Notes: a model not told the origin generated them from the sequence alone. A stretch of 64,000 nucleotides of DNA from Cyanobacteriota bacterium (GCA_046052125.1 JBJOMY010000003.1:32001-96000); one strand, 5' to 3'. Counted from the stretch's first letter, positions 29,275 through 46,011 are shown. Numbers and translations are program-made.

Positions 29275-29796
29275 ATGGCGCAGCACTTCCGCCCAAGCAG
29301 CGCCGCTGATCCGGTGGAAGAGCTGCGCGCTGCCGCCAGCGCAGAAGACGACAACGGCCAGCCGCTGTATGAGCCCACCGACCCCGCCCGGCCGATCGGC
29401 CATGCCAACCCCCCGCGCCGCACGCGGGGCCTGGCCTTGCAGCCACCCCCTCGGCCCTCGCGTTTGGAGGTGGAGCGGCGTGTGGCAGAAGCGCAGCTCT
29501 GGATCGCCCAGCGCATTCCGCTGGCACTGATCGCCGAAAAAGCTCGTGAAAGCTGGGGGGTGAAGAACACCCAGACGATCAATCGCTACCTCAACCTGGC
29601 CCGCGAGCGGATGGTGGAGGAGCTGATCAGCGACCGGCGCCGCCACCAGGCCGAGCAGATCTTTGCCCTCAATGACTGCGCTCGGCGGGCGATGGATGCT
29701 GAGCAGTTCTCAGCTGCAGTCGGCGCCTTTCGCGTGATTGCGGAGATCGGCGGACTGCTGCGCGCACCACTCAAAGCGCCGGAGGCCAAGAGCTGA
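29275..29796 (+). CDS. probable terminase small subunit
   Basis: HTH-like WGVKNTQTINRYL plus helical C-terminus; TGATG-coupled to TerL. Confidence 0.55.
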   Translation: MAQHFRPSSAADPVEELRAAASAEDDNGQPLYEPTDPARPIGHANPPRRTRGLALQPPPRPSRLEVERRVAEAQLWIAQRIPLALIAEKARESWGVKNTQTINRYLNLARERMVEELISDRRRHQAEQIFALNDCARRAMDAEQFSAAVGAFRVIAEIGGLLRAPLKAPEAKS

Positions 29797-31418
29797 TGGC
29801 TGGGCTGTTGCTGGATCCAGCCGCTGACCGCTGGGCCGACTGGGGCCTGCTGGATGGTCCTGATTCAGACCGCCAGCCGAACGGCCCCCAGGCCCACCAG
29901 GCCTTCCGTGATTTCATCGTGGCCGCTTATCCCGGCTACGCCTTCCATAACTGGGCCGAGCGCCTGATCGCCCTGCTGCAGCGCGTGGCCGATGGCGAGC
30001 TCAACCGCCTGATCGTCTGCTGCCCACCCAGGCTGGGCAAATCGCTACTGGTCTCCAAGCTCTTCCCGGCCTACTGGGTGAGCCGCTACCCCACGCGCTT
30101 CTGCGCGATCGCCTCCTATTCGGCGGAGCTGGCCTATGCCCATAGCCGTGAGGCGCGGCACTACTACCGCGCCGTCGGTCACCCCCTCTCGAAGGACTCC
30201 ACCGCCGTTGGCAACTGGCTGACGCCCGAACGGGGCGGCTGCATCGCTGCTGGTGTGCGCGGGCCCTTCACCGGCAAGGGCTACGCGCTGGGGATCATCG
30301 ATGACCCCTACAAGGGTCCAGAAGACGCCAACTCCGCCGGGCAACGCCAGAAGCTGATCGAGTGGTTTCAGTCTGTCTGGCTCACCCGCGCTGAACCAGG
30401 GGTGAACGGCAGTGCTGGAGCCGCCCAGGTGGTGGTGCTGACCCGCTGGCACCAGGACGACCTGATCGGCTGGCTGCTGGAGCAGGAATGCGGTGATGCC
30501 CCGCAGCAGTGGCAGGTGCTGAATCTGCCGGCGATTGCTGAACCGCCCCAGCTACAGATCAAGTTCCCGGCCACCTGCACCATCGAGCCGGACTGGCGCC
30601 AGCCCGGTGAGCCGCTCTGCCCAGAGCGTTTCCCGCTGGCGGAGCTCGAGCAGATCCGCATTCGCGCCGGCAGTTACTGGTGGAACGCGCTGTACCAGCA
30701 GCGCCCCTCACCGGCAGAGGGCCTGCTGTTCCAACGCGCTTGGATCCGCTCCACAGCGGGCACCCCTGCTCCAGACGGCCGGGCGGCGCAACGGTCCTTT
30801 GCGGCGGTGGTGCTCAGTTGTGATCTGAGTTTCAAGGGGGGAGCGGAGAACGACTACTGCGGCTTCTGCCTGCTCGGCCTGCTGCCTGATCGGGAGGCCC
30901 GCCACCCGGTGGCGCAGGCCAGGGCAAGGGGTGAGCAGCTTCACCCCAGTGCCGCCCGGGTGCGCTCACCGGCCGAACCGCAGGCAGGCGTTGTCCACAG
31001 GATTGAGGTGATCTGGAGCCAGCACCACCGCCTCGACCTGCCGGGGGTGGTCAACTTCCTCGGCCAAACCCTGGCGTCGCTGGGTCAAGGCCAAAGCCCT
31101 GATGCCGTGCTGATCGAGGACGCCGCCAATGGTCCGGCCGTCTGCCAGTTGCTGCAACGCCAGATTCCTGGCCTGATTGCTGTGCGACCCACCGGCAGCA
31201 AGGTGAGCCGCGCCCATGCCGTGGCTCCGTTGCTTGAGGCCGGCCAGCTGGCCTTTCGCAGCGGCAACGAGGCCCTGGTCAGCGAGCTGCTGGGTTTTCC
31301 AAATGCAGCCCATGACGACCTTGTGGATGCCTTCTGCCAGGGCGTGATCTGGCTGCAGAGCCAGCACTGGCGCAGCCAGGGCAAGGCCACGCCACGGCCA
31401 TTGCTGTTTTCCCGCTGA
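29796..31418 (+). CDS. terL: terminase large subunit
   Basis: PPRLGKS, TGKG, IIDDPYK, TRWHQDDL, ALYQQRP, SCDLSFK, IEDAANG, HDDLVDA. Confidence 0.93.
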   Translation: MAGLLLDPAADRWADWGLLDGPDSDRQPNGPQAHQAFRDFIVAAYPGYAFHNWAERLIALLQRVADGELNRLIVCCPPRLGKSLLVSKLFPAYWVSRYPTRFCAIASYSAELAYAHSREARHYYRAVGHPLSKDSTAVGNWLTPERGGCIAAGVRGPFTGKGYALGIIDDPYKGPEDANSAGQRQKLIEWFQSVWLTRAEPGVNGSAGAAQVVVLTRWHQDDLIGWLLEQECGDAPQQWQVLNLPAIAEPPQLQIKFPATCTIEPDWRQPGEPLCPERFPLAELEQIRIRAGSYWWNALYQQRPSPAEGLLFQRAWIRSTAGTPAPDGRAAQRSFAAVVLSCDLSFKGGAENDYCGFCLLGLLPDREARHPVAQARARGEQLHPSAARVRSPAEPQAGVVHRIEVIWSQHHRLDLPGVVNFLGQTLASLGQGQSPDAVLIEDAANGPAVCQLLQRQIPGLIAVRPTGSKVSRAHAVAPLLEAGQLAFRSGNEALVSELLGFPNAAHDDLVDAFCQGVIWLQSQHWRSQGKATPRPLLFSR

Positions 31419-31436
31419 GGCGACTCCCCCCTGTTT

Positions 31437-31970
31437 TTGATGAGCACCCCACTACACGCCCGCCGCCCCAAGCCCCAGCAGGCCACTGCTCGCGTGACGA
31501 CAACAGGCCGAGCACGCGGGCCATTGCGTTCACCCCATGCCACTGCTGATGCCTTGGTGGTGGAGCACCTGCCCTTTGCCGCGAAGGTGGCGGCCAATTA
31601 CGCACGCCGCACTGGTCATCCCAAGGAAGATCTGGAGCAGCTGGCCGCGATCGGGCTGATCAAAGCCTCACGTCGCTACGACATTCACCGCCCGGGCCGC
31701 AGTCCAAACCACTTCATTGCCTACGCCAGGCCGTTCGTGAACGGCGAGATCACCCATTACCTGCGTGACAAGGGGTTCTTGATTTCCGTACCGGGCCGCT
31801 GGCGGGAGCTGCATGTGCGGGGACAAAAACTTCTCAGAGAAGGGGTTGAATCCCATGAAATCCCGCAACGGCTGGGGCTCTCGCCTGATCGCTGGGCTGA
31901 GATCCTTCAGGCCTGTTGTGTGCAGGTAGTGGCGATGGGGACTCGACAAGTGGAGGAGTCATTGGGGTGA
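31437..31970 (+). CDS. truncated SigF-like sigma factor (sigma2+sigma3, no sigma4)
   Basis: EHLPFA..EDLEQLAAIGLIKASRRYD..YARPFVNGEITHYLRD..VPGRWREL; ends without a region 4 HTH. Confidence 0.8.
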   Translation: MMSTPLHARRPKPQQATARVTTTGRARGPLRSPHATADALVVEHLPFAAKVAANYARRTGHPKEDLEQLAAIGLIKASRRYDIHRPGRSPNHFIAYARPFVNGEITHYLRDKGFLISVPGRWRELHVRGQKLLREGVESHEIPQRLGLSPDRWAEILQACCVQVVAMGTRQVEESLG

Positions 31971-32058
31971 TTATGATTTTCAGTAACTACCCAGAACAGA
32001 ATCGAGACGAGTTCTACGCAGAGATGCGCCCCATACGCTCATTCTCTGCTTCTAAATA

Positions 32059-33804
32059 TTAGGCATTAGCCTGTGATTGGTTGATGCCTTTCGATTTTAG
32101 CTTCTGAGTTGAGATTGCCTGCTCCAGGAGCGCCTTTAGCTCAGTGTGCATTGGTACCGATGGGCTTGAAATCCGCTTTAACCCCTTTAACTTAGCCGCA
32201 TCTGCCGTTCCTACATATCTGTTCTTAGCCGCCTCTTCAACTTTCGTCAAAAGCATTTTACCTTTAATGGTCGCGGCACAACTTCCGCCAAGATCTCTCC
32301 AGCGCTTGCTTGGGACGCCGACCGCTCCTTTGCTCAATCCACCAACAGCGGATTGGTACGCCGTATTGAAATCCTTCTCAGCTGCATCAGCATCGATGAG
32401 TGCAACTGCTTCGGCAAGCAAAGCAGAAGCATCCTCGCGATCAATATCAAATACATTTTCCAAATGCTGTATTGTGCAGAATCCCGCCTCTATGTCTGAT
32501 CCTGCCGGCATCCAAAAAGGAATGTTATGTACATCGTACTCCATTTTTTTGATTAATGCGTCTCTATCCGCATCAGACAAGAAGTCTCGGTCCCTGTGAA
32601 CCGCAATCGCGATGCCGAGCTCCGCTCTAGTCTTCGATAGGGCGAGGCCACGTGGCAAAGAGCCCGAGCCAAATGCTGGCCACAGCAGTACCTTCCGTGC
32701 TAGTTCGGGCCACTGAGCAAGGATGTTCTTCATGTATTGGAGGTTCCCATCTTCTGTGACGAGAAGTAGGTCCTTGTCAAGGGCTCCCCATCCCATTCGC
32801 TGTCTTACCTGATCCTCTCTTTCACTTCGGAGGGCGCCATCGCTTATCCACAGCACGTGAGAGGTGGCGCTAGAAGCCCGTACTAAGCTTGGAGAGTGCG
32901 TTGCAAGCATGAACTGAGTTTCCGGAAACGCGCTCGCAGCATCTTCAATAGCCGAGATCAGCCTCTCTTGAGTCCCGGGATGAAGGTGAGAGTCAGGTTC
33001 GTCAATAAGTAGGAGCCTCGGTCTGAAGTGAAGCAAGTAGGCAAAAATCTGAACTACCTGTAAAAAGCCAGTGCCGGCCATCTCCAGCGATCTCCACTGA
33101 AGGTCCAGCTTCTTACCAGATTCAATCATGTCATTAGTGAGGAACTTTGCGTCAATATCTACGTCCCTTAGGCGGTCGAACTTAACCCAAAAGCGCACGC
33201 CTGGAAACACCTTGCCAACCCATCTATTTAGATCAGATAATTCCTCATGTTTCTCGATGCTCTCATGTCCGGTCGCTGTGATTGCCAAACCAAGCAAGAT
33301 GTGACGAAGCACAGATCCGCCCTCACCTGAGGCAGCTCGCCGGTGAAGTACGGGGGTGGCTAGCAGCGACTCCGCTTCCGAGAGACCAGCTAACCCAGGG
33401 ATATACGCAGTCATCTGCGAGGTGGCAGTGACTGTGCTTGCGAGGGCTCCACTAACAATCGCCTTTATTCCTGCATCGTTGCGAGTTGAGTGCATATTTA
33501 TTTCTAACTGGTCAGCGCCAGATTCCAGTATCACGCGCACTTTTGGGGAGGCGGCAGCGCTATTGAGGCGAACCTTGTGAGCAAGATGCAAGAAGTCTCG
33601 ACTTGGCGCGTAATCCATACGCTCCAGAGTTACTCGATCCGCCCCGTCCTTCAAAGCCGCGCAACGCACAGCCCAATGAATTGCCCGAAGAATCGATGAC
33701 TTACCGGATCCGTTTTCGCCGACGAGAATAGTGACCGGCCCCAAGGGGATTCGCACCTCTCCATTAATTCGCATGAAGTTAGCGACAGTCACTGAGTCAA
33801 ACAT
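32059..33804 (-). CDS. ABC-type ATPase with C-terminal TOPRIM-like domain (OLD-like nuclease)
   Basis: GENGSGKS, AGTG, LLIDEPDSHLHP, ATHSP; C-terminal VTED..HRDRD..DIE; visibly lower GC. Confidence 0.8.
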   Translation of the reverse strand: MFDSVTVANFMRINGEVRIPLGPVTILVGENGSGKSSILRAIHWAVRCAALKDGADRVTLERMDYAPSRDFLHLAHKVRLNSAAASPKVRVILESGADQLEINMHSTRNDAGIKAIVSGALASTVTATSQMTAYIPGLAGLSEAESLLATPVLHRRAASGEGGSVLRHILLGLAITATGHESIEKHEELSDLNRWVGKVFPGVRFWVKFDRLRDVDIDAKFLTNDMIESGKKLDLQWRSLEMAGTGFLQVVQIFAYLLHFRPRLLLIDEPDSHLHPGTQERLISAIEDAASAFPETQFMLATHSPSLVRASSATSHVLWISDGALRSEREDQVRQRMGWGALDKDLLLVTEDGNLQYMKNILAQWPELARKVLLWPAFGSGSLPRGLALSKTRAELGIAIAVHRDRDFLSDADRDALIKKMEYDVHNIPFWMPAGSDIEAGFCTIQHLENVFDIDREDASALLAEAVALIDADAAEKDFNTAYQSAVGGLSKGAVGVPSKRWRDLGGSCAATIKGKMLLTKVEEAAKNRYVGTADAAKLKGLKRISSPSVPMHTELKALLEQAISTQKLKSKGINQSQANA

Positions 33805-34072
33805 GTCTTGCGAGCATCCTTGGTCTCAATTTGCACGCATGGAAACTGTTGTATTTCATCTGACAAGAAGATGGCGTACGTTCACGCTTTGGCGACCAAC
33901 CCAGTCTTAAACAACTCAGAAAGCCATGCTGGCGGCATGAGGGTCTGGACAGTGATCATTTCGCTCAGGGTTCCATGGGCATCGGATCGCGCTAGCAGTG
34001 CCTCCTCGGGAAGCTTCCACAAACCGTAGGCGTCATCGACGGATCCGAGAACACCGCCCTGCCACAGGTTGA

Positions 34073-35503
34073 TTGCCGCGCAGGCAAAAGCAGTTAGCGC
34101 AGCTGATCCCCGTGCCACCCGCATCCGTCGAAAATCCACTCCCCTGGCCACTCCACCCCACCCTGGCCGCACTGCTCCCTCGCCTGGATCTGATCCAGGA
34201 CTGCTGGGACCTCCTCGCTGGCCGCAAGGAGCTCTATCTCCCCCGGGGTGAACGGGAGCCAGAGAGCGCCTACCGCCGGCGGCTGGAGGCGGCCCTGCCC
34301 TCGGGGTTCTTCCGTGATGCCCTGCGCACCTTCGCGGGGATGCTGGCCTCCAGCCACTGGCGTGAGCTGCCGGCCTCGCTGCAGGCGGTAATCAGTGATG
34401 TGGATGGACGCGGTACCGACCTGGGCGTGTTCCTCGAGCGCGCCGACGTGCTGGTACTCCGTGATGGGGCAGCGCTGATCGGCGTGCTGCCGCCTGAGCA
34501 CCTCTGGCCCAGTGAGGGCGACCGCCAGCAGGCTCTGCGCCGTGGTGATCGCCTCTCCCTGCCGCGCCTTGCTCTGCTGGAGCGCCGCGACGTCCTGAAC
34601 TGGCACCTGCCTGGCCCCCAGTCCTTGCCTGACGCGGTCAGCTTCCGGCTGCCCAACCCCAAGGCCCAGGACGAGCCCCTGGACCCGGATCGACCTCAGC
34701 ATCCATGGCTCTACGGCTCCGTTGCCCTTGATGGCGAGGGCATGAGCATCGAGACCATCGAGCTGGTGGCGGACCCGCAGTCCCCATCAGGGTGGCGACC
34801 GCAACGCACGGGATTGCAGCACTACCGGGGCATCAGCCAGCTGCCGTTGATTTGGTACGCCAGTGATGGCGCTGCCTTTGGCGAGGGCGACCTACCGCAC
34901 CTGGGCCTGGCGCATCAGTACCTCAACCACTTCCGCTGCCAGAGCGACTACCAGGAGCTGCTGTATCGAACCGCGTTGCCGGTGGGTGTGCGTACAGGGG
35001 TCGTCGGCCCCATGGGCAGTGGCACTAGTGAGCCGGTGGTGCTTGGCCCGAACAGCGTGATCGATCTGCCCGACGGGGCCAGCTTCCAGTTCGTGGAAAT
35101 CCAGGCCCGCTCCCTGGCTGAGCACCGCGCTTGGCTGGAATCCCTCGACCAGGGCATGCGTCGTGACGCCCTGATCCCATCCGGCGCCCAAGGGGCTCCA
35201 CGCACCGCTACCGAGATCTCTCTGGCGGCATCCCAGGCCTATGCGCTGCTGCAGAGCCAGGCGATTCAGAAGGCCTCCATGTTTTCGTCGTTGCTGGCTC
35301 ATTGGTGCGCAATCACCGGTGAACCAGTTCCCGTGCAGCAGGGTCCGGCGTTGCTGGTGGAAATCAGCCCGCTGGCCCCCGCGCCCAAACCGCAACCCAC
35401 CGTGGCTGAAATGCTGCAGCTGCATGAGCGCGGCATCGTGAGTGAGCAGGCTCTGCGGCAATGGCTGGGGGATCTGGCCGGTGTGGCACCGGCCTCGGCT
35501 TAA
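34073..35503 (+). CDS. portal protein (DUF4055-like)
   Basis: YLPRGEREPESAYRRRL, DVDGRGTDL, LAHQYLNHF..SDY..LYRTALP, RTATE; start may be GTG 34112. Confidence 0.8.
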   Translation: MPRRQKQLAQLIPVPPASVENPLPWPLHPTLAALLPRLDLIQDCWDLLAGRKELYLPRGEREPESAYRRRLEAALPSGFFRDALRTFAGMLASSHWRELPASLQAVISDVDGRGTDLGVFLERADVLVLRDGAALIGVLPPEHLWPSEGDRQQALRRGDRLSLPRLALLERRDVLNWHLPGPQSLPDAVSFRLPNPKAQDEPLDPDRPQHPWLYGSVALDGEGMSIETIELVADPQSPSGWRPQRTGLQHYRGISQLPLIWYASDGAAFGEGDLPHLGLAHQYLNHFRCQSDYQELLYRTALPVGVRTGVVGPMGSGTSEPVVLGPNSVIDLPDGASFQFVEIQARSLAEHRAWLESLDQGMRRDALIPSGAQGAPRTATEISLAASQAYALLQSQAIQKASMFSSLLAHWCAITGEPVPVQQGPALLVEISPLAPAPKPQPTVAEMLQLHERGIVSEQALRQWLGDLAGVAPASA

Positions 35504-36366
35504 GCCTGCTGCGCCCGCTTCTCAGGGAAAGCTGCGGTTGGGCACCAGATCGCTGCACTGGCGTCGCCCAGCGCCCAGGTCCGGCCCTGGAGGTGCTCGA
35601 TCGCAACCCAGGCACAGACCAGGGCATCGAGACAGTCCTCCAGCGGCTTGAGCGCAGAGAGAGATTGGACCTCGGTGGACTGGGGCAAGGGCAGGTTGAT
35701 GTCCTGGATCTGCTGAGCAAGCCCATCACGAATCCGCCCGAACTCCTCCAGCAACCGGCCGATCCGCTCGTTCACAGACAGCTGCTCGTTTCGCCAGTAC
35801 TGCAGCGAGCGGCTGACCTTGTACGGCACTCGGTACTTGCTCTCTAACAAGGCCAGCAGGGCGACATGGGGGTACACCTCGATTAGCCCGCCGGGACCGG
35901 GTTCTGCAGCCACCGTCTGCAGGCCATAGCCGCAGACCTCCAAGTCTTGGCGAATGCTGTCGGCGATGGCGCCTGGCCGCTGCAGTGTTGGGCTGTGCAC
36001 AGCGCAGCCCCGGTTGCCAAAGATCCGCGAGACCGCGCGGTCTGCCTGCCGGCGATGACCGATTGGCTCTTTGGAGAGCGGCATATCGAATGCGATCAAA
36101 TCGATGCGACCATCCGACAGCCGTTCAGCTGCACGCAGCAGGGCCGACATCTGGGGCTTGCTGCCCTGAGCTCGTGCTGACCAGTCGACAGCAATGCCAT
36201 CGGCCAGTGCCATGAAGCTGGCATAGCTGGGTGCAAGAGCGACACACCTCCAGCTCTCGCCTTGGCGTCGCACCAGCGCGATGCCACTGGGTTGATGGGC
36301 CGTCCAGGCCGCATCAATCCCCAGCACCAGCTCTCCGGCAACAGGAGTTGGTCTTGGGCTCGTCAC
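35500..36366 (-). CDS. DUF429 RNase H-like nuclease
   Basis: LGIDAAW, IAFDMPL, LIEVYPH, DCLDALVCAW; GTG start inferred. Confidence 0.85.
   Translation of the reverse strand: MTSPRPTPVAGELVLGIDAAWTAHQPSGIALVRRQGESWRCVALAPSYASFMALADGIAVDWSARAQGSKPQMSALLRAAERLSDGRIDLIAFDMPLSKEPIGHRRQADRAVSRIFGNRGCAVHSPTLQRPGAIADSIRQDLEVCGYGLQTVAAEPGPGGLIEVYPHVALLALLESKYRVPYKVSRSLQYWRNEQLSVNERIGRLLEEFGRIRDGLAQQIQDINLPLPQSTEVQSLSALKPLEDCLDALVCAWVAIEHLQGRTWALGDASAAIWCPTAAFPEKRAQQA
36336..36344 (+). promoter_or_regulatory. candidate late promoter CGGCAACAG
   Basis: 26 nt before GTG 36371; overlaps the 5' end of the antisense DUF429 gene. Confidence 0.4.
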
Positions 36367-36370
36367 TGCT

Positions 36371-36883
36371 GTGCCTGCATCACCAACCCCCGCCGCAATC
36401 TGGCAACCCGGCGACCAGGAGGCCATCCGCCAGTGCCTGGCGCTGCCCGCCACCGTTCCCTGCCTGGATGCCATCGGTCGAGCAATGGCGGATCTGCTGC
36501 GCCAGCACCCGGCCGGGGTGTTGAGCGCCCGAGCGCTTCTGGATGCGGTGGCCCTGATTGATCAGCAGCTGCTGGCCGGCGGCTGCGAGCAGGAGCAGCC
36601 GATTCAGAAGCGCAGCCACTCGGGACCGATCGCCGGCTCGGTGGCCGCAGCTGGAGATGCGCCCCTGCAAAAAGCAGACGTGATCGCCTACGACACAGCG
36701 CTGCTGCGCGAAGAAAGCGAGACCACTTACGCCAGCCCCAGTTCGCCCGCGATGGCCCTGCTGCGCCAGCGGCGCCGCTACGCCGAGCAGCTGCTGTTGC
36801 TCCTGCCTGCGCTCAACAGCTGGATGCAGTTCACCGCCGAGGCCGCAGGGCTGCTGGGAACCACGCCGATGCTGCGGGGTTGA
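36371..36883 (+). CDS. hypothetical virion protein (head-closure/adaptor candidate)
   Basis: Helical protein between portal and scaffold; position-based. Confidence 0.55.
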   Translation: MPASPTPAAIWQPGDQEAIRQCLALPATVPCLDAIGRAMADLLRQHPAGVLSARALLDAVALIDQQLLAGGCEQEQPIQKRSHSGPIAGSVAAAGDAPLQKADVIAYDTALLREESETTYASPSSPAMALLRQRRRYAEQLLLLLPALNSWMQFTAEAAGLLGTTPMLRG

Positions 36884-39805: not shown

Positions 39806-40486
39806 GTGGCGATGACGGCTCCTGAGAACGCCCACAGCCAGCGCTACACCGATGCCCTGGGCTGGGCGGCTGAGCTGCACCGCGGTCAGCGTCGCAAGGG
39901 CAAGCCGGTTCCTTACATCGCCCACCTGATCGCCGTGAGTGCTCTGGTGTGGGAGGACGGCGGCAGCGAAAACCAGGCGATTGCGGCTCTGCTGCACGAC
40001 GCCATCGAGGATGCGGGTCAGAGCCAGGCCTCGATTGCCGCACGCTTTGGCGAGGAGGTGGCCGCGATCGTGGTGGACTGCACCGACACAGCTGGCCCCG
40101 TGGAGCCCGGCGCCGAAAAGGAACCCTGGCTGCTGCGCAAGACCCGCTATCTCGCCTCGCTGGAGGAGAAGCCGCAGACCTCTTTGCTGGTGACGGCAGC
40201 CGACAAGGCCCACAACGCCCGCGACCTGGTGCTCGATGCCCGCAGCCACCCTGGTGGCTGGGAGCGTTTCACGGCGGGGCTGGAGGGCAGCGCCTGGTAT
40301 CTGCTGCGCGTTCAGCAGGCCCTGAGCCATCGCTTGCCGGAGAGTCGCTCCACCGCCCTACTGGCAGAAGCTGTGCAAGAACTGCTGAGCAGCGAGCCCT
40401 ACCGGCGCCTGGTGCCCCATGGCATCGCTCCGGCGGTGTGGGCCGCCAGCTACCTGGAGCGGCCAGAGGCCCATCCCCAGCCTTGA
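39806..40486 (+). CDS. HD-domain small alarmone hydrolase (Mesh1/SpoT-hydrolase-like)
   Basis: H.GQRRK..PYIAHLIAV, AALLHDAIED, ADKAHNAR. Confidence 0.85.
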   Translation: MAMTAPENAHSQRYTDALGWAAELHRGQRRKGKPVPYIAHLIAVSALVWEDGGSENQAIAALLHDAIEDAGQSQASIAARFGEEVAAIVVDCTDTAGPVEPGAEKEPWLLRKTRYLASLEEKPQTSLLVTAADKAHNARDLVLDARSHPGGWERFTAGLEGSAWYLLRVQQALSHRLPESRSTALLAEAVQELLSSEPYRRLVPHGIAPAVWAASYLERPEAHPQP

Positions 40487-40525: not shown

Positions 40526-40783
40526 TCAGTTGTCTGGATCGCGGCGTCGGCCGCTGACGATGCTGCCGCCACCGAGCAAGGCCAGGCTGGTTCCAACCGC
40601 CGCCTCAAAGGTCTGCTGCAGGTTCTCGGCGTAGCTGCTGCACACCGGGCCAAGCCGCCGCTGCAGACCAAGCCAGAAGCAACCGCCCAGGCCAGCGGCA
40701 TAGAGCGCGAACTGGGCGATGAAGACCCCCGCCACCGCCCGCAACAGAAAGCGCTCGCGATCAAATCCATCGCCACCAGCCAT
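40526..40783 (-). CDS. small two-TM protein, holin candidate
   Basis: Two hydrophobic segments and a basic C-tail; directly downstream of the peptidase. Confidence 0.5.
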   Translation of the reverse strand: MAGGDGFDRERFLLRAVAGVFIAQFALYAAGLGGCFWLGLQRRLGPVCSSYAENLQQTFEAAVGTSLALLGGGSIVSGRRRDPDN

Positions 40784-40800
40784 GGCTGTGCTCCTTGGGG

Positions 40801-41547
40801 TCAGGGTTGGCAGGTGAGCAGCCAGCCGGTGCCGGGGCCATCGGCCTGCCAGCGCGGCAGCCAGTTCTTCCAGCTGTAGTGCTGCCCTGCTCCATTGGTG
40901 TTGGCGGTGTAGCCGCCGTGGACCAGGTCGGCCTCACCGTTGGGGTCGTTGTGGATGGCGACTGTCTCGGTGAAACCGATCACCACGCTCCAGTGACCGC
41001 CGCCGCTGGGTGCAGAAGCGGGGCCGTGGTGCAGCCAGCCCACTGCGACCGGTCGCCCCAGGTTGATCTGTTCCTCCAGCGTTGCGCGCTGGCCGTTGGT
41101 GGCGAAGTGGGCAGTCAGCCCCAGGGATCGCAACGCCGCCAACTGAGCTTCTGCCGAGGTGGTGTCGCCATAGCGGGCACGGATGACGTTGTAGGCGTCA
41201 TCGCCACTGACCTTGCCCCAGAAGCGGGCGAGCATGGCGCAGCTGCTGGAGAAGCACTCGCGGTAGCCAGTGCCTGAAGCGTTGTCGTTCTGGTTCTCCC
41301 AGGCCACCGGCAGCGGATTGGCATGGGCCGGGGCTGGGGGAGCTGATGAAAAGGTCTGCCGCCATGGGGCGGCCTCGGTGAGGACCTGTGGATCGGCCGC
41401 CATGACCGCCAGCCGCAATTGCTCGATGCCGGCGAGCTGCTGAGGCTGACCCTTCCAGTGGTCCCAGAACTGACGCCAGCGCTCAGCGCTGAACGGCGCC
41501 TGGTCACCAGGCGCGACGGCAGCCGGAGTGGGAGAGCTTGGAGACAT
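40801..41547 (-). CDS. C39-like cysteine peptidase (probable endolysin)
   Basis: Q.DN..RECFSSSCAM, GHWSVVIG, HNDPNG (Cys-His-Asp). Confidence 0.8.
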   Translation of the reverse strand: MSPSSPTPAAVAPGDQAPFSAERWRQFWDHWKGQPQQLAGIEQLRLAVMAADPQVLTEAAPWRQTFSSAPPAPAHANPLPVAWENQNDNASGTGYRECFSSSCAMLARFWGKVSGDDAYNVIRARYGDTTSAEAQLAALRSLGLTAHFATNGQRATLEEQINLGRPVAVGWLHHGPASAPSGGGHWSVVIGFTETVAIHNDPNGEADLVHGGYTANTNGAGQHYSWKNWLPRWQADGPGTGWLLTCQP

Positions 41548-41567
41548 GGCAGCAGGGCAGTCCTCTG

Positions 41568-41576
41568 CTGTTGCCG
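41568..41576 (-). promoter_or_regulatory. candidate late promoter CGGCAACAG
   Basis: 20 nt upstream of ATG 41547 on the minus strand. Confidence 0.5.
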
Positions 41577-41681
41577 CAGCATCCATCCACTGATCAAGGC
41601 CTGCCTGCGTGTCACCTGTCGGGCTGCTTGAGACCGCCGCGCCCGTGATACCTGCGGTTCAGATTGCTTAGCCTGGGGGCC

Positions 41682-41900
41682 ATGACCAACCCCCAGCTCA
41701 CCGAGAACCTGCTCGCCGTGATCCGCAGCCTGCCGGCTGACGATCGCCGCTGGCTGCTCAGGCAGCTGGAGCAGGACAACAGTGACCTGAGTCACGGTGC
41801 CCTGGCTGAGATGGCGATGGCCGGGGGAGCCTTTGACGACCTGGCCGCTGAACCTGAGCTCTACAGCTTCTCCGACGGAGAAGCGATCGTTGCCGGCTGA
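41682..41900 (+). CDS. antitoxin candidate
   Basis: Small, acidic C-terminus (FDDLAAEPELYS); TGATG-coupled to the toxin. Confidence 0.7.
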   Translation: MTNPQLTENLLAVIRSLPADDRRWLLRQLEQDNSDLSHGALAEMAMAGGAFDDLAAEPELYSFSDGEAIVAG

Positions 41901-42247
41901 TGCTCAGCCGCTACGACATCGTGCTTGTCGCCTTCCCTTTCACGGATGGGCCGGCGGCCAAGCCTCGCCCGGCTTTGGTGATCACCACCAGTGATCGCCA
42001 TGGGGATGTGCTGCTGGCCTTCATCAGCTCCAACATCAGCGGCCCAACGGCCAGCGATGAGCTCGACATCCCAGCCGACCATCCAGGCTTCTCAGACACC
42101 GGCCTGAAGGTGAGCTCAAGGCTGCGGCTCAGCCGCATGACAACGCTGGCCATGCCACTCGTGAAACGGCGCATCGGACGACTGCCGCTGGCCTTGCAGA
42201 CGAACTGCCAGCAGGTGCTGCAGCGGGTGATCGGCGCCCAAGGCTGA
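41900..42247 (+). CDS. PemK/MazF family toxin
   Basis: DIVLVAFPFTD..KPRPALVI, FISS, TGLKVSS.LRL. Confidence 0.88.
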   Translation: MLSRYDIVLVAFPFTDGPAAKPRPALVITTSDRHGDVLLAFISSNISGPTASDELDIPADHPGFSDTGLKVSSRLRLSRMTTLAMPLVKRRIGRLPLALQTNCQQVLQRVIGAQG

Positions 42248-42278
42248 ACGCTCTCCTGTGGGGCAGTTCGTGTCGCCT

Positions 42279-42287
42279 CGGCAATAG
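42279..42287 (+). promoter_or_regulatory. candidate late promoter CGGCAATAG
   Basis: Intergenic, upstream of the capsid gene. Confidence 0.5.
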
Positions 42288-42323
42288 CCCCTGACATCAA
42301 TGGGGCCCGGCCCCACCTGTGCC

Positions 42324-43253
42324 ATGGGCCTCACCCTGATCGAGGCAGCCAAATACGAGCACCGGCTTGAGCACCTGGCTGTGCTCAAGACCTTCTCGGA
42401 GGGCGAACTGCTCGCCCGGCTGCCGTTCATGAACATCGCCGGCAGCGGCCTCTTCTATTCCGCCGAGCAGGAGCTGCCCTCGGTGGGCTTCCGCGCCGTG
42501 AACGAGGGCTACACCCAGAGCTACGGCGTGGTGGATCAGCGCGCAGAAGCGGTGCACCTCTTTGGTGGTGATGTGGATGTGGACCGCTCGATCGTGGACC
42601 TGATGGGCCCTGAGGCCCGCGCCAGCCAGATCGAGATGAAGGTGCGCTCGATGCGCCTCACCCTGGAGGCGACCGTGATCAACGGCGACACCGCCAGCAA
42701 CCCCCGCGCCTTTGACGGCTTGAGCAAGCGCCTGCCGCCCGGCAACCCGATGGCGATCAACAACGCCTCCGGTGCCATTCCCGGTGCGCCGCTGAATTTC
42801 GATCGGCTTGATGAGCTGATCGATTCAGTGAATGCCTACGGCGGCAGCAAGGTGCTGGTGATGAGCAAGGCGATGCGCCGCCAGCTCAATGCTCTCGCCC
42901 GCGCCTCCATCGGCGGTGGTGTGTACCAGACCAGCACCAACTCCTACGGGATGACGGTGCACCGCTACCAGGACTGCGACATCCTCACCGTCGACCGCGA
43001 TGCCCAGGGCGTCGAGGTGATGGGCTACGACGAGGCGGGCGGCACCAGCTCGATCTACTGCTGCACCTTTGGCGATCAGGGCGTGACCGGCCTGCAGGGC
43101 CCGTTCCAGGGCCGCTATGGGATCTCGGTGCGGGACCTGGGCGAGGTGCCCGATGCCCCGGTGTTCCGCACCCGCGTGGATTGGTACGTGGGCTTTGCCG
43201 TGCTGCAGCCCCGCGCCGCCGGCCGTCTGTTCAACATCACCCCCGCTGCCTGA
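42324..43253 (+). CDS. major capsid protein (HK97 fold)
   Basis: LTLIEAAK, LPF, LPSVGFRAVNEG, DVDVDR, INGD..FDGL, RTRVDWYVG..AAGRL.NI. Confidence 0.85.
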   Translation: MGLTLIEAAKYEHRLEHLAVLKTFSEGELLARLPFMNIAGSGLFYSAEQELPSVGFRAVNEGYTQSYGVVDQRAEAVHLFGGDVDVDRSIVDLMGPEARASQIEMKVRSMRLTLEATVINGDTASNPRAFDGLSKRLPPGNPMAINNASGAIPGAPLNFDRLDELIDSVNAYGGSKVLVMSKAMRRQLNALARASIGGGVYQTSTNSYGMTVHRYQDCDILTVDRDAQGVEVMGYDEAGGTSSIYCCTFGDQGVTGLQGPFQGRYGISVRDLGEVPDAPVFRTRVDWYVGFAVLQPRAAGRLFNITPAA

Positions 43254-43256
43254 GCC

Positions 43257-43694
43257 ATGGCCCTCACAAACGGCAACCCCTTGATCGATGCGGAGACCAC
43301 CCTGGTGGGCTGGACCAACCGCAGCGCCATCCGCAACACAGAGCACACCTTCCTCTCCGGAGAGGAGGTGCTGCTCAACACCAAGCTCGATGCGGCCTCC
43401 CGCTTCTCGCTGGTGGCCTCCCATCCCGGCGCGCCTGCCGCGGTGGAGGTGGAACTGCTGCTGGCACCGGTACTGCGCGATGGCACCACCGGCAGCTGGA
43501 TCAGTGCCGTCCGCGTTGCCCTACCGGCAGAAGGCGGCCGGGTGGAGGCATTTCTTTCCGGCCATGACATCCAGATCACACCGGCGGATCTGCCCAACCT
43601 CGATCTGCCGGCGGTGTGTTTCGCCAAGGCGCTCGTGACCCCGACCACCCCGGCGGGCATGCACGCGGGCCTGACGGCCACGATTGCGGCCTGA
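43257..43694 (+). CDS. capsid cement/decoration protein candidate
   Basis: 145-aa beta-rich protein directly after the MCP. Confidence 0.5.
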   Translation: MALTNGNPLIDAETTLVGWTNRSAIRNTEHTFLSGEEVLLNTKLDAASRFSLVASHPGAPAAVEVELLLAPVLRDGTTGSWISAVRVALPAEGGRVEAFLSGHDIQITPADLPNLDLPAVCFAKALVTPTTPAGMHAGLTATIAA

Positions 43695-43698
43695 GCCC

Positions 43699-44121
43699 AT
43701 GGCCCGCAAACGCTCCACCAGCCCTGCAGAGGAACCGGCAGCCGAGGAGCAGCCGGCGCAGCCCACGCCGATCGAGCTTCCACCCGCCGCCGCAACCCGC
43801 CACGACCTGGGGGATCCCACCGTGCCGGCCGGCCTGGTGCGCATCAGCAACGGCAGCGGTGAGCGCTTCATCTGGCCGGTGCACCTGGGCGGCTGGCAAC
43901 AACAGGGCTGGACCCTGATCGCTGCCGCCACCGGCCTTCAGATCACGCCGGCACCAACAGCGCCTGCAGCAGTGATCGAGGTGCCGCTGGCCGCAGCAAC
44001 GCCAGAGGCGAGCACAGTCGAACCAATCCCAGACGACGCCGAGTCCGAGTTGGCAGCCACCTGGGAGCTGGAAAGCAGCGCCACAAGCGAGGCGCTGCTG
44101 CTCGACGACCCGCTGCTTTGA
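43699..44121 (+). CDS. hypothetical virion-associated protein
   Basis: Disordered flanks around LVRISNGSGERFIWPVHLGGWQQQGW. Confidence 0.6.
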   Translation: MARKRSTSPAEEPAAEEQPAQPTPIELPPAAATRHDLGDPTVPAGLVRISNGSGERFIWPVHLGGWQQQGWTLIAAATGLQITPAPTAPAAVIEVPLAAATPEASTVEPIPDDAESELAATWELESSATSEALLLDDPLL

Positions 44122-44124
44122 GGG

Positions 44125-44913
44125 GTGATCGCTTCCGTGCGCTCCTTTCTTCCCTCCCAAGCGAGCAGCACGGCAGCCAGCCCGCAGCTGATTCGCGTGC
44201 TGCCTCCTCTGGGCTGCCCGGGCGAGAGCGTGTGGGTGCCTCCCGTGGAGGTGAGCCGCTGGGAGCAGCAGGGCTACCGCCGCGCTCCCATCCCCGCCGC
44301 ACCGCTGGAGTTGGCCTGGCTGCCGGATGCGCCTGTGCCCCTGGACCCAGCTGGCAGCACCGCGGTGTTGCTGCTGCTCCAGGCCCGGCCACCGTTGCCA
44401 ACGGCGCTGTCGCTGGATTGGGGTGACGGCAGCGTTGAAACCTGGCCCTGGCCCCGCGGCGACAATGCGCCGCGGCTCCGCCATGCCTATACCTGCGCCC
44501 AGGACTGGCAGGTTTCGGCAGAACTGAGCGGCAGCGGCATCAGCGCCGAGCTGGCGGTGCATCTGCTGGGCTGCCCGATTTGGCCGCCACCGCCACCCCT
44601 GCCGCCGGGGGCGATTCAGCCGCTCATCCCCGGCAGTGGCCTGCTCGGCCAACCGTTTGATGGCCGGCGCCGCGAGCAGTGGCAGCTGCAGCGCTGGAGT
44701 GGCGGCACCAGCAGCGGCGGCGTACCAGCCAGCGATGGCTCCAGCACCCGCTTCCTGCGGGCCGATGGCCTCTGGGCCACCCCGCCGGGCAGTGGCGGTG
44801 GCACCCGCTGGTGGAGCGGCGAGGGGCCACCCGGAGTGCTCCCTGATGCCCAAGCGGGTGACTTCTATCTCGACACCCGCAGCGGTGATCTCTACCAACT
44901 GGAGCTGAGCTGA
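44125..44913 (+). CDS. PKD-like domain protein with C-terminal fibre half-motif
   Basis: LDWGDGS..HAY (PKD), TRFLRADGLWATP, WWSGEGPP..GDFYLDTRSGDLY. Confidence 0.65.
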   Translation: MIASVRSFLPSQASSTAASPQLIRVLPPLGCPGESVWVPPVEVSRWEQQGYRRAPIPAAPLELAWLPDAPVPLDPAGSTAVLLLLQARPPLPTALSLDWGDGSVETWPWPRGDNAPRLRHAYTCAQDWQVSAELSGSGISAELAVHLLGCPIWPPPPPLPPGAIQPLIPGSGLLGQPFDGRRREQWQLQRWSGGTSSGGVPASDGSSTRFLRADGLWATPPGSGGGTRWWSGEGPPGVLPDAQAGDFYLDTRSGDLYQLELS

Positions 44914-45380
44914 TGCCCTGGACCCACAGCACCAACCTCAAGGGGCCTTCGATGCTGCGGCTGGCGCGGCTACCGGCGGCGCTGAGCACCAGCTCCGGCA
45001 CCAGTTGGCTCACCTTGTTCACCACACCGCTGGCGGCGCAGCAGGTGCTCTCCTTTGCGGCGGAGCTCTACTTCTCCAGCGGCGCCAACAACACCGGCCT
45101 GGTGACCACCCTCTCTGGCCCCGCCGGGCCGCATGCGGTGATTCACAACCTGGTGACGGGTGAATCGCTCACCACCTTCCGCAACCTCACCGCCAGCAGC
45201 TACGACACGCCCCTGATCGGCACCAGCTCCGCCGGCAGTTCGGTGCTCAGGGCTCAGGTGAGCGGCACGGTGGAGAACGGCGCCAATGCCGGCAACCTCA
45301 GCCTGCGTTTTCGCTCAGAGGTGGCCGGCACCGCGGTGACAGTGCTGCGCGGCTCCTGGTGGCAAGTGCTGCAGCACTGA
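44913..45380 (+). CDS. fibre tip-like beta-sandwich protein
   Basis: N-terminal MPWTHSTNLKGP; C-terminal GNLSLRFRSEVAGTAVTVLRGS. Confidence 0.6.
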   Translation: MPWTHSTNLKGPSMLRLARLPAALSTSSGTSWLTLFTTPLAAQQVLSFAAELYFSSGANNTGLVTTLSGPAGPHAVIHNLVTGESLTTFRNLTASSYDTPLIGTSSAGSSVLRAQVSGTVENGANAGNLSLRFRSEVAGTAVTVLRGSWWQVLQH

Positions 45381-45404
45381 GCTGCGTTCACTCCAGCTCA
45401 CCAA

Positions 45405-45413
45405 CGGCAATAG
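45405..45413 (+). promoter_or_regulatory. candidate late promoter CGGCAATAG
   Basis: Intergenic, 37 nt upstream of the collagen gene ATG. Confidence 0.5.
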
Positions 45414-45450
45414 GGAGTGTTCTCTCTGGCCCTTGGGCCGCTGCTCTGTC

Positions 45451-46011
45451 ATGGCCTGGATTCCCTCCGGTTCACTCAAGGGTCCGCACGGTGATCCCGG
45501 CCCCCAGGGCCCCCAGGGGGTGCAAGGCCAACCCGGTGCCGATGGTGCCCAGGGCGTGCAAGGCCCGCAGGGACCTGCGGGGATACAGGGCGTCGCCGGC
45601 CCAGAAGGACCCCAGGGCCAGCAGGGCATCCAGGGTGCCCCGGGTCTGGGCATCACCTTCAAGGGGCACGTGCCCACGGTGGCGGATCTGCCCGCCGATG
45701 CCGCCCAGGGCGATGCCTACATCGTGCAGGCCGATGACTCCTTCCGCGTCTGGGACGCCACCAGCAGCACCTGGGTGGATGGGGGTTCGATCCAGGGACC
45801 CCAGGGCATCGCCGGCCCGCAGGGACCGCAAGGCCTGCAGGGAGAGCCCGGCCCCCAGGGCCTGCAGGGGGTGGAGGGCCCCAGTGGCCCCCAGGGCAAC
45901 CGCGGCACCGGCTGGTTCACCGGCAGTGGCGCACCCACCACCATTTCCGGCTCCATGCCGGGTGATCTGTACCTGGATCAGACCAGCGGCGATGTGTACG
46001 TGCTGAGCTGA
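45451..46011 (+). CDS. collagen-like fibre protein
   Basis: Two Gly-X-Y tracts, internal FKG.V.TVADLP..GDAYIV knob, C-terminal GDLYLDQTSGDVY. Confidence 0.85.
   Translation: MAWIPSGSLKGPHGDPGPQGPQGVQGQPGADGAQGVQGPQGPAGIQGVAGPEGPQGQQGIQGAPGLGITFKGHVPTVADLPADAAQGDAYIVQADDSFRVWDATSSTWVDGGSIQGPQGIAGPQGPQGLQGEPGPQGLQGVEGPSGPQGNRGTGWFTGSGAPTTISGSMPGDLYLDQTSGDVYVLS

Follow-up and report, generated by a model that had tools for sequence, protein, structure and literature searches.

A head, packaging and lysis module lacking recognisable tail genes in a 65.3-kb integrative element of a freshwater picocyanobacterium

The window analysed here, a 64,000-nucleotide stretch of DNA from a freshwater picocyanobacterium, contains at 29.2–46.0 kb the late genes of an integrative element that is 65.3 kb long and sits at a tRNA-Pro gene. 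This mobile island descends from a cyanosiphovirus; it has kept the genes that excision, replication, assembly and filling of a head, and cell lysis would require, while the tail genes are missing. The best reading, which we hold at about even confidence, is that the element is a giant capsid-forming satellite, resembling the cf-PICIs in its working without being a member of that class. Here, we establish the gene content of the element, its borders, the conservation of its family, the existence of a free circular relative and the homology of its head and connector genes to those of phages; under the satellite reading, the element would also form particles, package itself, lyse the cell and borrow tails.

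The element is not confined to 29–46 kb: the distance between the att cores gives the full length of 65.3 kb, and both ends are exact 43-nt tRNA-Pro repeats. ARAGORN finds no tRNA inside the window; the intact tRNA-Pro(tgg) partner lies at window-equivalent positions 81228–81301, 17 kb beyond the window's end. A 24-nt arm repeat, common to both ends of the element, is a candidate integrase arm site. Past the window, the element goes on with metal-resistance cargo, AbiD, a Rad52 module and attR. Among the scanned ORFs of the window (at least 60 aa) there is no match to an AlpA-type regulator, and a KilA-N protein is found instead. An adjacent 33-kb island within the window resembles the tycheposon type. 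Outside the head module, the features are:

15918–15960: attL core, an exact 43-nt copy of the tRNA-Pro(tgg) 3' end (partial tRNA)
16092–16115: tandem CATCTCACATG, two copies, present again at the tRNA end, 26 nt away from the core (the candidate arm site)
16100–17344, + strand: tyrosine integrase (phrog_1, 3.4e-15)
17363–28791: regulation and replication block, from family matches
18569–19789, - strand: KilA-N protein
19662–20297, - strand: Gp2.5-like SSB
22224–22601, - strand: VRR-NUC
22635–23362, - strand: PIN/FitA
23437–24870, - strand: helicase
24995–27811, + strand: primase (phrog_35358, 2.3e-139)
28099–28791, + strand: PD-(D/E)XK protein
46057–50798, - strand: conserved leftward block (g46057, YhaV/PrlF toxin-antitoxin, sigma factor, g48630, ArdC-like, g50226)
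47723–48433, - strand: sigma factor of the leftward block
49028–50101, - strand: ArdC-like gene of the leftward block
50795–57907, - strand: cargo, type I restriction-modification HsdR, HsdS and HsdM with PDC-S14
58121–64000: remaining part of the element in the window, an AAA_33-WYL protein and ORFs without assignment
59115–61337: AAA_33-WYL protein

The head, packaging and lysis set proposed for 29.2–46.0 kb is real; TerL, portal, scaffold, MCP, lysin and collagen-like fibre all have family matches, and these genes are the element's own and stand without a recognisable tail:

29239–29796, + strand: TerS candidate, without family match, from its position and co-conservation with TerL in relatives
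29796–31418, + strand: TerL, large terminase (phrog_38, 5.7e-86; PF17289, PF03237)
31437–31970, + strand: small phage-type sigma factor sig1, kept between TerL and portal
32059–33804, - strand: cargo, OLD/AriA-like AAA_21 ATPase (51% GC insert)
34073–35503, + strand: portal (DUF4055, 1e-14; phrog_145, 6e-33)
35500–36474, - strand: cargo, DUF429 / PDC-S44
36371–36883, + strand: head-completion candidate 1 (36371), homologue of S-CBS2 gp011 and PSS2 gp061; true start possibly residue 39
36887–37453, + strand: head-completion candidate 2 (36887), homologue of S-CBS2 gp013 and PSS2 gp062
37524–38384, + strand: head scaffolding protein (phrog_206, 9e-18; matches S-CBS2 and PSS2 scaffold)
38443–39330, + strand: cargo, Fer4 and metallo-beta-lactamase fusion
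39806–40486, + strand: cargo, HD phosphohydrolase
40526–40783, - strand: 85-aa holin candidate that has two stretches of hydrophobic residues, adjoining the lysin and conserved there
40801–41586, - strand: lysin-like C39 peptidase (phrog_10051, 2e-73)
41664–42247, + strand: cargo, MazE-like protein / MazF
42300–43253, + strand: major capsid protein, MCP (phrog_212, 1.6e-70; PF20911, PF17236)
43257–43694, + strand: conserved jelly-roll protein 43257 after the MCP, decoration or receptor-binding candidate
43684–44121, + strand: 145-aa late ORF 43684, varying among relatives
44125–44913, + strand: conserved protein 44125, FN3/PKD-like sandwich at about 58–149, C-terminus modelled poorly
44913–45380, + strand: 155-aa late ORF 44913, in the close clade only
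45433–46011, + strand: collagen-like fibre, 192 aa (PF01391, 6.5e-16)

No match to a prohead serine protease or HNH was found in the late operon, and the scaffolding protein phrog_206 is present instead. The earlier call of an endolysin holds in part: the product is a C39-like peptidase homologous to S-CBS2 gp054 and PSS2 gp098, but of these phage endolysins it has only the peptidase portion at the C-terminus. The neighbouring 85-aa protein may act as the holin.

The nearest cultured relatives of the MCP, portal, scaffold and lysin peptidase domain, as well as of 36371 and 36887, are the cyanosiphoviruses P-SS2 (NC_013021), S-CBS2 (NC_015463) and S-CRES1-3; the MCP is 45% identical to that of PSS2 and 42% to that of S-CBS2, and the portal 30–32% identical to the S-CBS2, S-CRES and PSS2 portals. 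P-SS2 also resembles the element in having an integrase and a sigma factor. The match of 36887 to S-CBS2 gp013/PSS2 gp062 has an hhalign probability of 93% (E 3.4e-7), whereas that of 36371 to gp011/gp061 is weak (probability 50%, E 1.7e-4), with an identical order of genes. In S-CBS2, gp011 and gp013 (the latter annotated in its record as 'unknown structural protein') lie upstream of a tail protein and the tape measure, a position that suggests a connector role. The initial annotation had allowed that 36371 and 36887 might form a full podoviral tail; they are instead small and homologous to the two genes with which the head-to-tail block of the cyanosiphoviruses begins, and the remainder of that block is missing in the element. 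Neither matches adaptor or connector families or solved structures, and LysM and excisionase-like HTH domains occur on distant orthologues of 36887, an unusual finding if this is a neck protein. In contrast to the element, PSS2 and S-CBS2 have their own tape measure, tail protein and large tail/fibre proteins; apart from the C-terminal domain of S-CBS2 gp031/PSS2 gp087, these find no counterpart in the element or among the members of its family.

Tail tube, sheath, tape-measure and baseplate families gave no match among 49 ORFs of the window, and tail families none in the 20–24 ORFs between the window end and the tRNA or in nine re-scanned ORFs without assignment. Thus, the claim that no recognisable tail gene lies between the att sites was borne out with the ORFs outside the window included, and tail genes beyond 64 kb, which had been left as a possibility, were not found up to the tRNA. 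The sole tail-category matches in the element are fibre-type PHROGs on the collagen-like protein. In the element's own genome, which is 99.96% complete, PF10145, PF04984 and PF05709 (tape measure, sheath and distal tail) have no match, and phmmer searches with the 409 ORFs of the PSS2 and S-CBS2 loci returned no tape-measure or tail-protein match in that genome or among 2,199 family ORFs. Since these searches give no tail gene in this genome and no helper phage is known, any helper must be external.

Relatives were found in genome contigs (158, of which 80 loci were kept) and in viral contigs (35); gene order is common to the 115 loci, all of them head-only, and the scaffold comes after 36887 with a gap of 74–2,630 nt in 49 of 51 loci. 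Three further full-length elements, of 45, 62 and at least 68 kb at tRNA-Arg, tRNA-Gly and tRNA-Pro, have the same head-only layout; exact att repeats flank those of 45.2 kb (tRNA-Arg) and 62.3 kb (tRNA-Gly), the right-end Rad52 module is kept in all three, and their 64 unassigned ORFs are cargo or defence genes. Of the unassigned ORFs in relatives, 63 are 450 aa or longer, and 23 representatives of these show no tail tube, sheath or tape measure. A 49,900-bp IMG/VR metagenome contig with a 99-bp terminal repeat is a family member in circular, attP-joined order (Rad52 module, 46-nt tRNA-Gly fragment, int ... TerS, TerL ...), again with no tail family. The MCP is present in 8, 3, 2, 1 and 1 copies in five genomes. 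A simple deletion, a further possibility raised at the outset, is not what the relatives contain: judged from the loci compared, the missing tail is a family trait and not a local loss.

Conservation of this kind also bears on the view that the element is a decaying prophage whose tail module has been lost and whose mobility is gone. Such islands have been termed relic or degraded prophages, as in the account of the P-SS2-like islands of Synechococcus RS9917 by Sullivan et al. 2009 (PMC2784084), and cargo does interrupt the head operon (OLD/AriA-like ATPase, DUF429/PDC-S44, Fer4-MBL, HD protein and MazEF). We nevertheless hold decay to be very improbable: the head genes are all intact and the att repeats exact, one layout recurs in the 115 loci and at three different tRNAs, up to eight copies occur in one genome, a circular attP-joined form exists, and the cargo hot spots are themselves conserved in position across the family.

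The ORFs that follow the MCP bear on a second alternative, a self-sufficient temperate phage whose minimal tail escapes recognition. Here, 36371, 36887 and small late proteins (43257, 43684, 44125, 44913 and the collagen fibre; in relatives, beta-helix, Kelch, ~140-aa and ~430-aa proteins) would together make up a short device, mounted on the portal, for adsorption and ejection, so that no helper would be needed. The late operon does contain fibre or receptor-binding-type proteins that diversify across the family (collagen-like with C-terminal domains, beta-helix, Kelch, FN3/PKD). In the relatives examined, the collagen-like fibre is about 405–425 aa long and has a C-terminal domain. The predicted jelly-roll of 43257 is weakly like fibre and receptor-binding domains (BFVD), and an adhesion-type FN3/PKD domain in 44125, the LysM domain on distant 36887 orthologues, and the element's own lysis genes, replication and sigma factors in a phage-sized genome would all suit a phage. 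Against this, the structure models of two of the four small late ORFs (43257 and 44125), which have generic fold matches, show a jelly-roll and an Ig-like sandwich, neither of them a tube, adaptor or nozzle fold. Late ORFs reach at most 262 aa in the window's clade and, after the MCP, 349 aa in the circular relative; podoviral nozzles and knobs usually exceed 400 aa. Moreover, the head genes derive from long-tailed siphoviruses, and the 115 loci have no Pfam or PHROG tail family besides fibre-type matches. On balance we consider a minimal tail unlikely, though it keeps an appreciable share of our belief.

In the preferred reading, that of a giant satellite, the integrase would excise the element at the 43-nt att, the primase and helicase would replicate it, and its own sigma factor would drive TerS, TerL, portal, 36371, 36887, scaffold, MCP, decoration-like and fibre proteins; the terminase would pack the whole element of 45–70 kb into an S-CBS2-sized head, and the particles would be released by the holin candidate and the peptidase. 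The heads would then dock via 36371/36887 to the tails of co-occurring cyanosiphoviruses, in cf-PICI fashion, and so become infectious. By analogy with the cf-PICIs, tails may be borrowed or tail-less particles released. Several features count against the satellite: at 45–70 kb the element has the size of an entire phage, and it brings replication genes, sigma factors and lysis genes of its own, which are missing in most known satellites; any helper would have to be external; fibre-type proteins would be superfluous if a borrowed tail gave host recognition, unless they are head fibres; the match of 36371 to gp011 is weak, and the domains on distant 36887 orthologues sit poorly with a neck protein; and 43257, 43684, 44125 and 44913 are without assigned function.

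The heads could also serve another route or purpose: heads decorated with fibres might deliver DNA independently of a tail, host DNA might be packaged as in GTAs, or the element might move by vesicles or conjugation, with the capsid genes acting against phages. Fibre genes without a tail, the ArdC-like gene beside many defence systems in the element, and the report of tycheposons in viral-fraction and vesicle samples (10.1101/2020.12.28.424599) are consistent with such routes. We judge them improbable: the scanned ORFs of the element gave no match to a relaxase or type IV secretion family, and the integrase, att sites and circular form argue for self-mobilisation, unlike GTAs. Moreover, no mechanism is known by which a tail-less HK97-type head could pass its DNA into a cell.

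Among known systems, GTAs likewise have head genes of phage origin that a cellular genome retains, but they are tailed, non-excising and do not package their own genome, whereas the element has an integrase, exact att sites, a circular attP-joined relative and no tail. A complete temperate cyanosiphovirus (a PSS2 or S-CBS2 prophage) shares MCP, portal and scaffold homologues, but its tape measure, tail tube and tail-tip genes are missing in the element, the family loci and the genome. The cf-PICIs (e.g. EcCIEDL933 and KpCIDSM30104), as described in PMC10085698 and 10.1101/2025.02.11.637232, have an integrase, primase, TerS, TerL, portal, capsid and two head-to-tail genes, and no tail; the element is alike in its integrase, primase-replicase, TerS (by position and conservation only), TerL, portal and MCP, two candidate joining genes, defence cargo and lack of tail genes. 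Adaptors and connectors are described there as among the most variable conserved late genes, and 36371 and 36887 (median family identity 44% and 48%, against 79% for the MCP and 41% for g44125) likewise appear among the most divergent. The element differs in size (45–70 kb vs a median of 14 kb in PMC10085698, where the survey with the SatelliteFinder model set elements above 30 kb aside as unusual), in a cyanosiphovirus-like head lineage with a scaffolding protein and without prohead protease/HNH, in a lysin and holin candidate, which that model treats as 'forbidden', in its own sigma factors, Rad52 recombination module and fibre genes, and in its host phylum, Cyanobacteriota; moreover, it has no known helper. 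On size, on the protease (a scaffold instead) and on its lysis genes, the element is not a cf-PICI member. The tycheposons and PICI-like tycheposons of Prochlorococcus, as described in 10.1101/2020.12.28.424599, share tRNA integration, a tyrosine recombinase with primase/helicase, tandem arrays at one tRNA and local-adaptation cargo, but are given there as ~10–20 kb with no capsid set and at most one MCP-like or terS gene, whereas the element has 65.3 kb and a full head set. The family is widespread and multi-copy, and probably spreads genes for defence and metal resistance by means of particles that are tail-less or have borrowed tails. In the description of PMC2784084, the RS9917 islands, there interpreted as degraded prophages, are tRNA-bounded, about 42–65 kb long, and have a P-SS2-like terminase, portal (ORF25), sigma factor, lysozyme and integrase, as does the element; the PSS2 record also notes MCP similarity to RS9917_04023, and by that description the islands are a lead as candidate family members.

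The source genome (2.64 Mb, GC 64-65%, 99.96% complete) carries on contig C3 a single tRNA gene, tRNA-Pro(tgg), on the minus strand at window-equivalent 81228-81301; in the window itself no tRNA was found by ARAGORN. An exact second copy of the 43 nt at the 3' end of this gene lies at window 15918-15960, and a further copy, of 57 nt of its 3' part, at C3:14535-14591; from these copies, two islands are in tandem at tRNA-Pro. The element of interest extends from window 15918 to the tRNA-Pro, over 65.3 kb. Two tandem copies of the 11-mer CATCTCACATG at 16092-16115 overlap the integrase start, and the same tandem is found at the tRNA end, 26 nt from the att core; the two tandems are probably integrase arm sites flanking one unit. 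The sequencing-run evidence consisted of Logan contigs, as short unitigs, with loose ends at 15918 and 15960; these reflect the tRNA-derived core only and give no usable evidence of excision in the source strain. ORFs were picked by third-position GC and then scanned against Pfam and PHROGs, with the result listed here (several small genes are named by their window start).

Genes of the element (window coordinates)
16100-17344, integrase
Leftward block, regulation and replication: KilA-N, Gp2.5-like SSB, VRR-NUC, PIN/FitA, helicase
24995-27811, primase; PD-(D/E)XK nuclease next
TerS candidate, then TerL (phrog_38, 5.7e-86)
Between TerL and portal, small sigma factor
Portal (DUF4055; phrog_145, 6e-33)
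Between portal and scaffold, 36371 and 36887, two small genes without assigned function
Scaffold (phrog_206)
Minus strand, between scaffold and MCP, C39-like peptidase (phrog_10051 'endolysin', 2e-73)
Minus strand, with the C39-like peptidase between scaffold and MCP, holin candidate, 85 aa, hydrophobic
MCP (phrog_212, 1.6e-70)
Cargo inside the head operon: OLD/AriA-like ATPase, DUF429/PDC-S44, Fer4-MBL fusion, HD hydrolase, MazEF
Downstream of MCP, 43257, 43684, 44125 and 44913, four small genes without assigned function, then a collagen-like fibre protein
Right of the fibre gene, conserved leftward block: g46057, YhaV/PrlF, second sigma factor, ArdC-like gene
After this block, type I restriction-modification with PDC-S14
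Beyond the window, metal resistance: MerR, P-type ATPase, Nramp, chromate transporter
Beyond the window, further right: AbiD, Rad52 module, then the tRNA

The initial annotation had described a head, packaging and lysis module with no recognisable tail, and the Pfam and PHROGs scans bear this out. The C39-like peptidase aligns only to the C-terminal part of the endolysins of the cyanosiphoviruses S-CBS2 and PSS2, so the lysis module is plausible, not complete. A 51% GC insert between the sigma gene and the portal (32001-34000) carries a lone OLD/AriA-like ATPase, beside which no partner gene was detected.

No tape measure, tube, sheath, baseplate or large ejection protein was found among the scanned ORFs between the att sites; tail genes past 64 kb, one of the objections named with the initial annotation, are likewise absent from the scanned ORFs up to the tRNA, and the module belongs to the 65.3-kb element. 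PF10145, PF04984 and PF05709 had zero matches in the whole 99.96%-complete genome. An M23 peptidase touching tape-measure PHROGs lies outside the element, past the tRNA, and its match is confined to the peptidase domain. With 409 ORFs from PSS2 and S-CBS2 loci as phmmer queries (the loci omit S-CBS2 51,846-59,999, PSS2 1-8,999 and PSS2 105,234-107,530), no homologue of the tape measures or tail proteins in the covered loci was obtained; homologues were limited to portal, scaffold, MCP, collagen protein and lysin, plus an endonuclease-VII-like gene (3 loci) and a ~140-aa ORF resembling the C-terminal domain of S-CBS2 gp031 / PSS2 gp087, which follows the collagen gene in 31 loci and is absent from the window. 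Family loci, taken with flanks of +/-10 kb that for most loci fall short of the whole element, contain ORFs of at least 450 aa to the number of 126, half of them (63) homologous to window genes; 23 representatives of the other 63 were scanned and included no tail tube, sheath or tape measure. The sole tail-category match in these representatives was weak (phrog_4577, E 3.6e-5), on a 467-aa ORF; Pfam identifies the 435-aa counterpart of this ORF in locus L014 as a beta-helix protein.

The second island at the same tRNA-Pro att (33 kb, C3:14591-47918, i.e. window 1-15918 and C3:14591-32000; locus L003) has its own integrase (33% identical) and contains a lysozyme-C39 endolysin, an MmeI-type restriction enzyme, a Na/H exchanger, a Rad52-Gp157-SLOG module, PSS2-like DnaB and primase, and two sigma-like genes. 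Being without capsid or tail genes, it was ruled out as a tail donor; it looks tycheposon- or PICI-like. Near the att, a 107-nt direct repeat (84% identity; 13287-13393 and 15260-15366) duplicates the 3' end of ORF 12857-13387. Summed contig depth is up about ten-fold at 15170-15503 in four metagenome runs, which means that this stretch either has several copies or is conserved widely.

The head genes are nearest to those of cyanosiphoviruses. For the MCP, the closest are PSS2 (45% identity), S-CRES3 (43%) and S-CBS2 (42%), all 260 matching phage records being below 60%; for the portal, PSS2, S-CRES and S-CBS2 are again best among 71 matches (30-32%), and the scaffold and lysin domain also match PSS2 / S-CBS2. 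A podovirus reading, taken from the Pfam names GP7 and SU10_MCP, was rejected, the nearest phage MCPs and portals being siphoviral. Profiles of 36371 and 36887 built from family orthologues match neighbouring genes in both phages, namely S-CBS2 gp011 (E 3e-3) and PSS2 gp061 (E 2e-2) for 36371, and S-CBS2 gp013 (E 2e-4) and PSS2 gp062 (E 2e-3) for 36887. In hhalign, the 36887 family was paired with gp013/gp062 at 93% probability (E 3.4e-7) and the 36371 family with gp011/gp061 at 50% (E 1.7e-4); the alignments show common motifs. The profile comparisons pair both genes, proposed earlier as head-completion candidates, with siphoviral genes, for 36371 weakly. S-CBS2 gp013 is an 'unknown structural protein' in its record, and gp011/gp013 begin a run of small structural genes that ends at gp019 (tail protein) and gp021 (tape measure); from this position, the homologues are probably head-side connector proteins.

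In the family the scaffold directly follows 36887; of 51 loci, 49 have 74-2,630 nt between the two genes, the larger gaps containing minus-strand cargo. In one locus the gap is 6.5 kb, with no ORF above 135 aa by our ORF caller, and in one the region is rearranged. Median identity within the family is 44% and 48% for 36371 and 36887, 79% for the MCP and 41% for 44125; by these values the connector candidates appear to be among the most divergent conserved late genes, as are the adaptors/connectors of capsid-forming PICIs (cf-PICIs). Prediction of a portal-36371 complex scored 0.00, which is neither for nor against binding, and ESM Atlas searches with 36371 and 36887 were uninformative (best scores 0.77-0.80). 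Against PDB sequences, the 36371 and 44125 profiles had no match, and the matches of the 36887 profile were confined to the LysM and excisionase-like segments that its distant orthologues carry. The 36887 profile recovered 304 proteins at E <= 0.001, of which the 120 listed look like family members and are named only excisionase, LysM, helix-turn-helix or hypothetical. Distant 36887 orthologues of 299-351 aa (e.g. L025:2470-3369) have the conserved N-terminal part and an added LysM, and forms of 299-312 aa an added excisionase/RDF-like helix-turn-helix domain; 36887 in the clade of the window (36887-37453) has neither, an odd mix for a presumed neck protein.

The main rival explanation, less likely but plausible, is that of an autonomous phage whose minimal tail, built from small late proteins and fibres, went unrecognised; it is kept plausible by four late ORFs without assigned function and by the fibre-type proteins that the family retains. 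AlphaFold2 models from family alignments gave for 43257 a jelly-roll sandwich (pLDDT 77, pTM 0.74) and for 44125 an FN3/PKD-like sandwich at residues ~58-149 (pLDDT 68), with a poorly modelled C-terminus. Fold matches were generic, for 43257 with Z <= 6.9 (CBM22, TNF-like, YomS/XepA, a phage 7-7-1 capsid chain) and, in BFVD, with fibre and receptor-binding domains at E >= 1e-3, and for 44125 with FN3 and PKD domains (Z up to 9.3). Foldseek and VIA searches with both models gave no match to a tube, adaptor or nozzle, or to any known cement family, a negative that is not proof of their absence. The 43257 profile had only chance-level matches to PDB sequences; by tblastn against 50,697 phage records, 43257 had no match and 44125 only a 36-residue match, in three Nocardia phage records.

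Relatives of the MCP number 158 among species-representative genomes, from which 80 loci were kept, and 35 among IMG/VR contigs; the family occurs in numerous Cyanobium and Synechococcus genomes of freshwater and coastal origin. A recurrent order is seen in 115 loci: TerS, TerL, sigma, portal, 36371, 36887, scaffold, [cargo], MCP, 43257, 44125, [variable], collagen fibre, g46057, the variable late genes including beta-helix, Kelch and longer collagen proteins. Three relatives were followed at full or nearly full length: the G003 element (45.2 kb; tRNA-Arg(tct), 46-nt exact repeats), the G001 element (62.3 kb; tRNA-Gly(ccc), 70-nt exact repeats) and the G005 element (at least 68 kb; tRNA-Pro(tgg), the contig stopping short of the integrase). 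All have in common the backbone with its right-end Rad52 module, so the 65 kb of the source genome are one element. No tail gene was recognised in them: the 64 ORFs of 110 aa or more that were left unassigned are defence or cargo genes by Pfam. Together with the head-only order, this speaks against a simple deletion. On contig G005:C4 (L130-L134), of the clade with 62-65% MCP identity, ~30 kb of cargo (SNF2, GmrSD, PLD and RecD-like genes, ArdC, sigma) separates scaffold from MCP, so that the head genes stand in two parts. Between the element (L001 5611-12447) and G003 (L137/L138), VKOR, Nramp, one chromate transporter, MauE and DUF305 are 92-100% identical, a range that applies to most, not all, of the metal-resistance cargo genes; the integrases are 57% identical and the tRNA targets differ. 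Near-identical metal cargo despite these differences suggests recent exchange between elements.

MCP copies in five genomes numbered 8, 3, 2, 1 and 1, and a second element lies on contig C1 of the source genome. The 8-copy genome is G002, a ~4.0-Mb Cyanobium genome whose copies are on 8 contigs; loci L041, L043, L055, L059 and L060 belong to it. An IMG/VR relative of 49,900 bp (G010; L140/L142) is classed as having direct terminal repeats, and we verified a 99-bp repeat, the end overlap expected of a circular assembly. Its order is that of a circular, excised form: the Rad52 module is followed by 46 nt that match the 3' part of tRNA-Gly(ccc) at 98% identity and, ~130 nt on, by the integrase; replication genes and TerS lie at the contig end and TerL at its start. 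No tRNA gene and no tail family were found in G010, and the late-operon ORFs beyond its MCP are at most 349 aa long. The molecule may have been an episome or packaged DNA. The assembly break falls inside the ~90-nt TerS-TerL spacer, perhaps by chance, perhaps because physical DNA ends lie near a packaging site. Beside the attP of G010, a ~135-nt non-coding stretch (36387-36520) is 94% identical to C1:626596-626730 of the source genome, has 26 nt in common with the right end of the element (C3:112829-112854 = L001 16829-16854) and 19-20 nt with two other islands; a regulatory site or a small RNA, conserved near the element ends, is possible. A decaying prophage is unlikely in view of the conservation, the copy number, the exact att sites and the circular form; this was the reading that Sullivan et al., 2009 (PMC2784084) gave to similar islands of Synechococcus RS9917, which are possible members of the family. 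The WH8016 island and the sponge-symbiont prophage, by their published descriptions, appear to be different elements.

Picocyanobacteria are major primary producers. Prophages, plasmids and conjugative elements have, to our knowledge, seldom been reported from them, so that the movement of their large genomic islands calls for an explanation. The family is a concrete, testable candidate vehicle, of 45-70 kb, tail-less, putatively self-packaging, present in up to 8 copies per genome and carrying restriction-modification, abortive-infection, toxin-antitoxin and metal-resistance genes. One reading, which we think improbable, makes the elements a vehicle of gene transfer of major and so far unrecognised importance in picocyanobacteria, as phage-sized, self-packaging 'head-only' islands that enter cells without a tail of their own. 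In such a case, 20-40 kb of defence and metal-resistance cargo would be packed in fibre-decorated capsids, and released heads would capture free tails of unrelated cyanosiphoviruses or, most radically, would enter tail-less, via head fibres and a LysM-bearing portal plug. In the literature searched, which lay outside subscription journals, no description of the family as tail-less capsid-forming elements was found.

The head-only organisation is confirmed and extends beyond the window. The data fit an active, conserved, phage-derived element that would make heads and not tails. The cf-PICIs are reported to form capsids of their own, to leave the cell as tail-less particles and to join helper tails via variable adaptor/connector proteins (PMC10085698; 10.1101/2025.02.11.637232), and by analogy we infer particle formation and tail borrowing by the element. 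If true, cf-PICI 'tail piracy' would extend to another phylum, a different capsid lineage and a genome three to five times larger, and islands once called relic prophages would be re-read as functional elements. Tycheposons are described as tRNA-integrated Prochlorococcus islands of ~10-20 kb without their own capsid set (10.1101/2020.12.28.424599). The closest lifestyle to that read from the genes of the element is that of the cf-PICIs. The initial interpretation, a much larger capsid-forming, self-lysing element that borrows tails or releases tail-less particles, is supported in part: the head genes without tail genes stand, and either use of the heads would be as in cf-PICIs. The element is not itself a cf-PICI, since it differs from them in its size, in a scaffold rather than a protease, and in lysis genes of its own.
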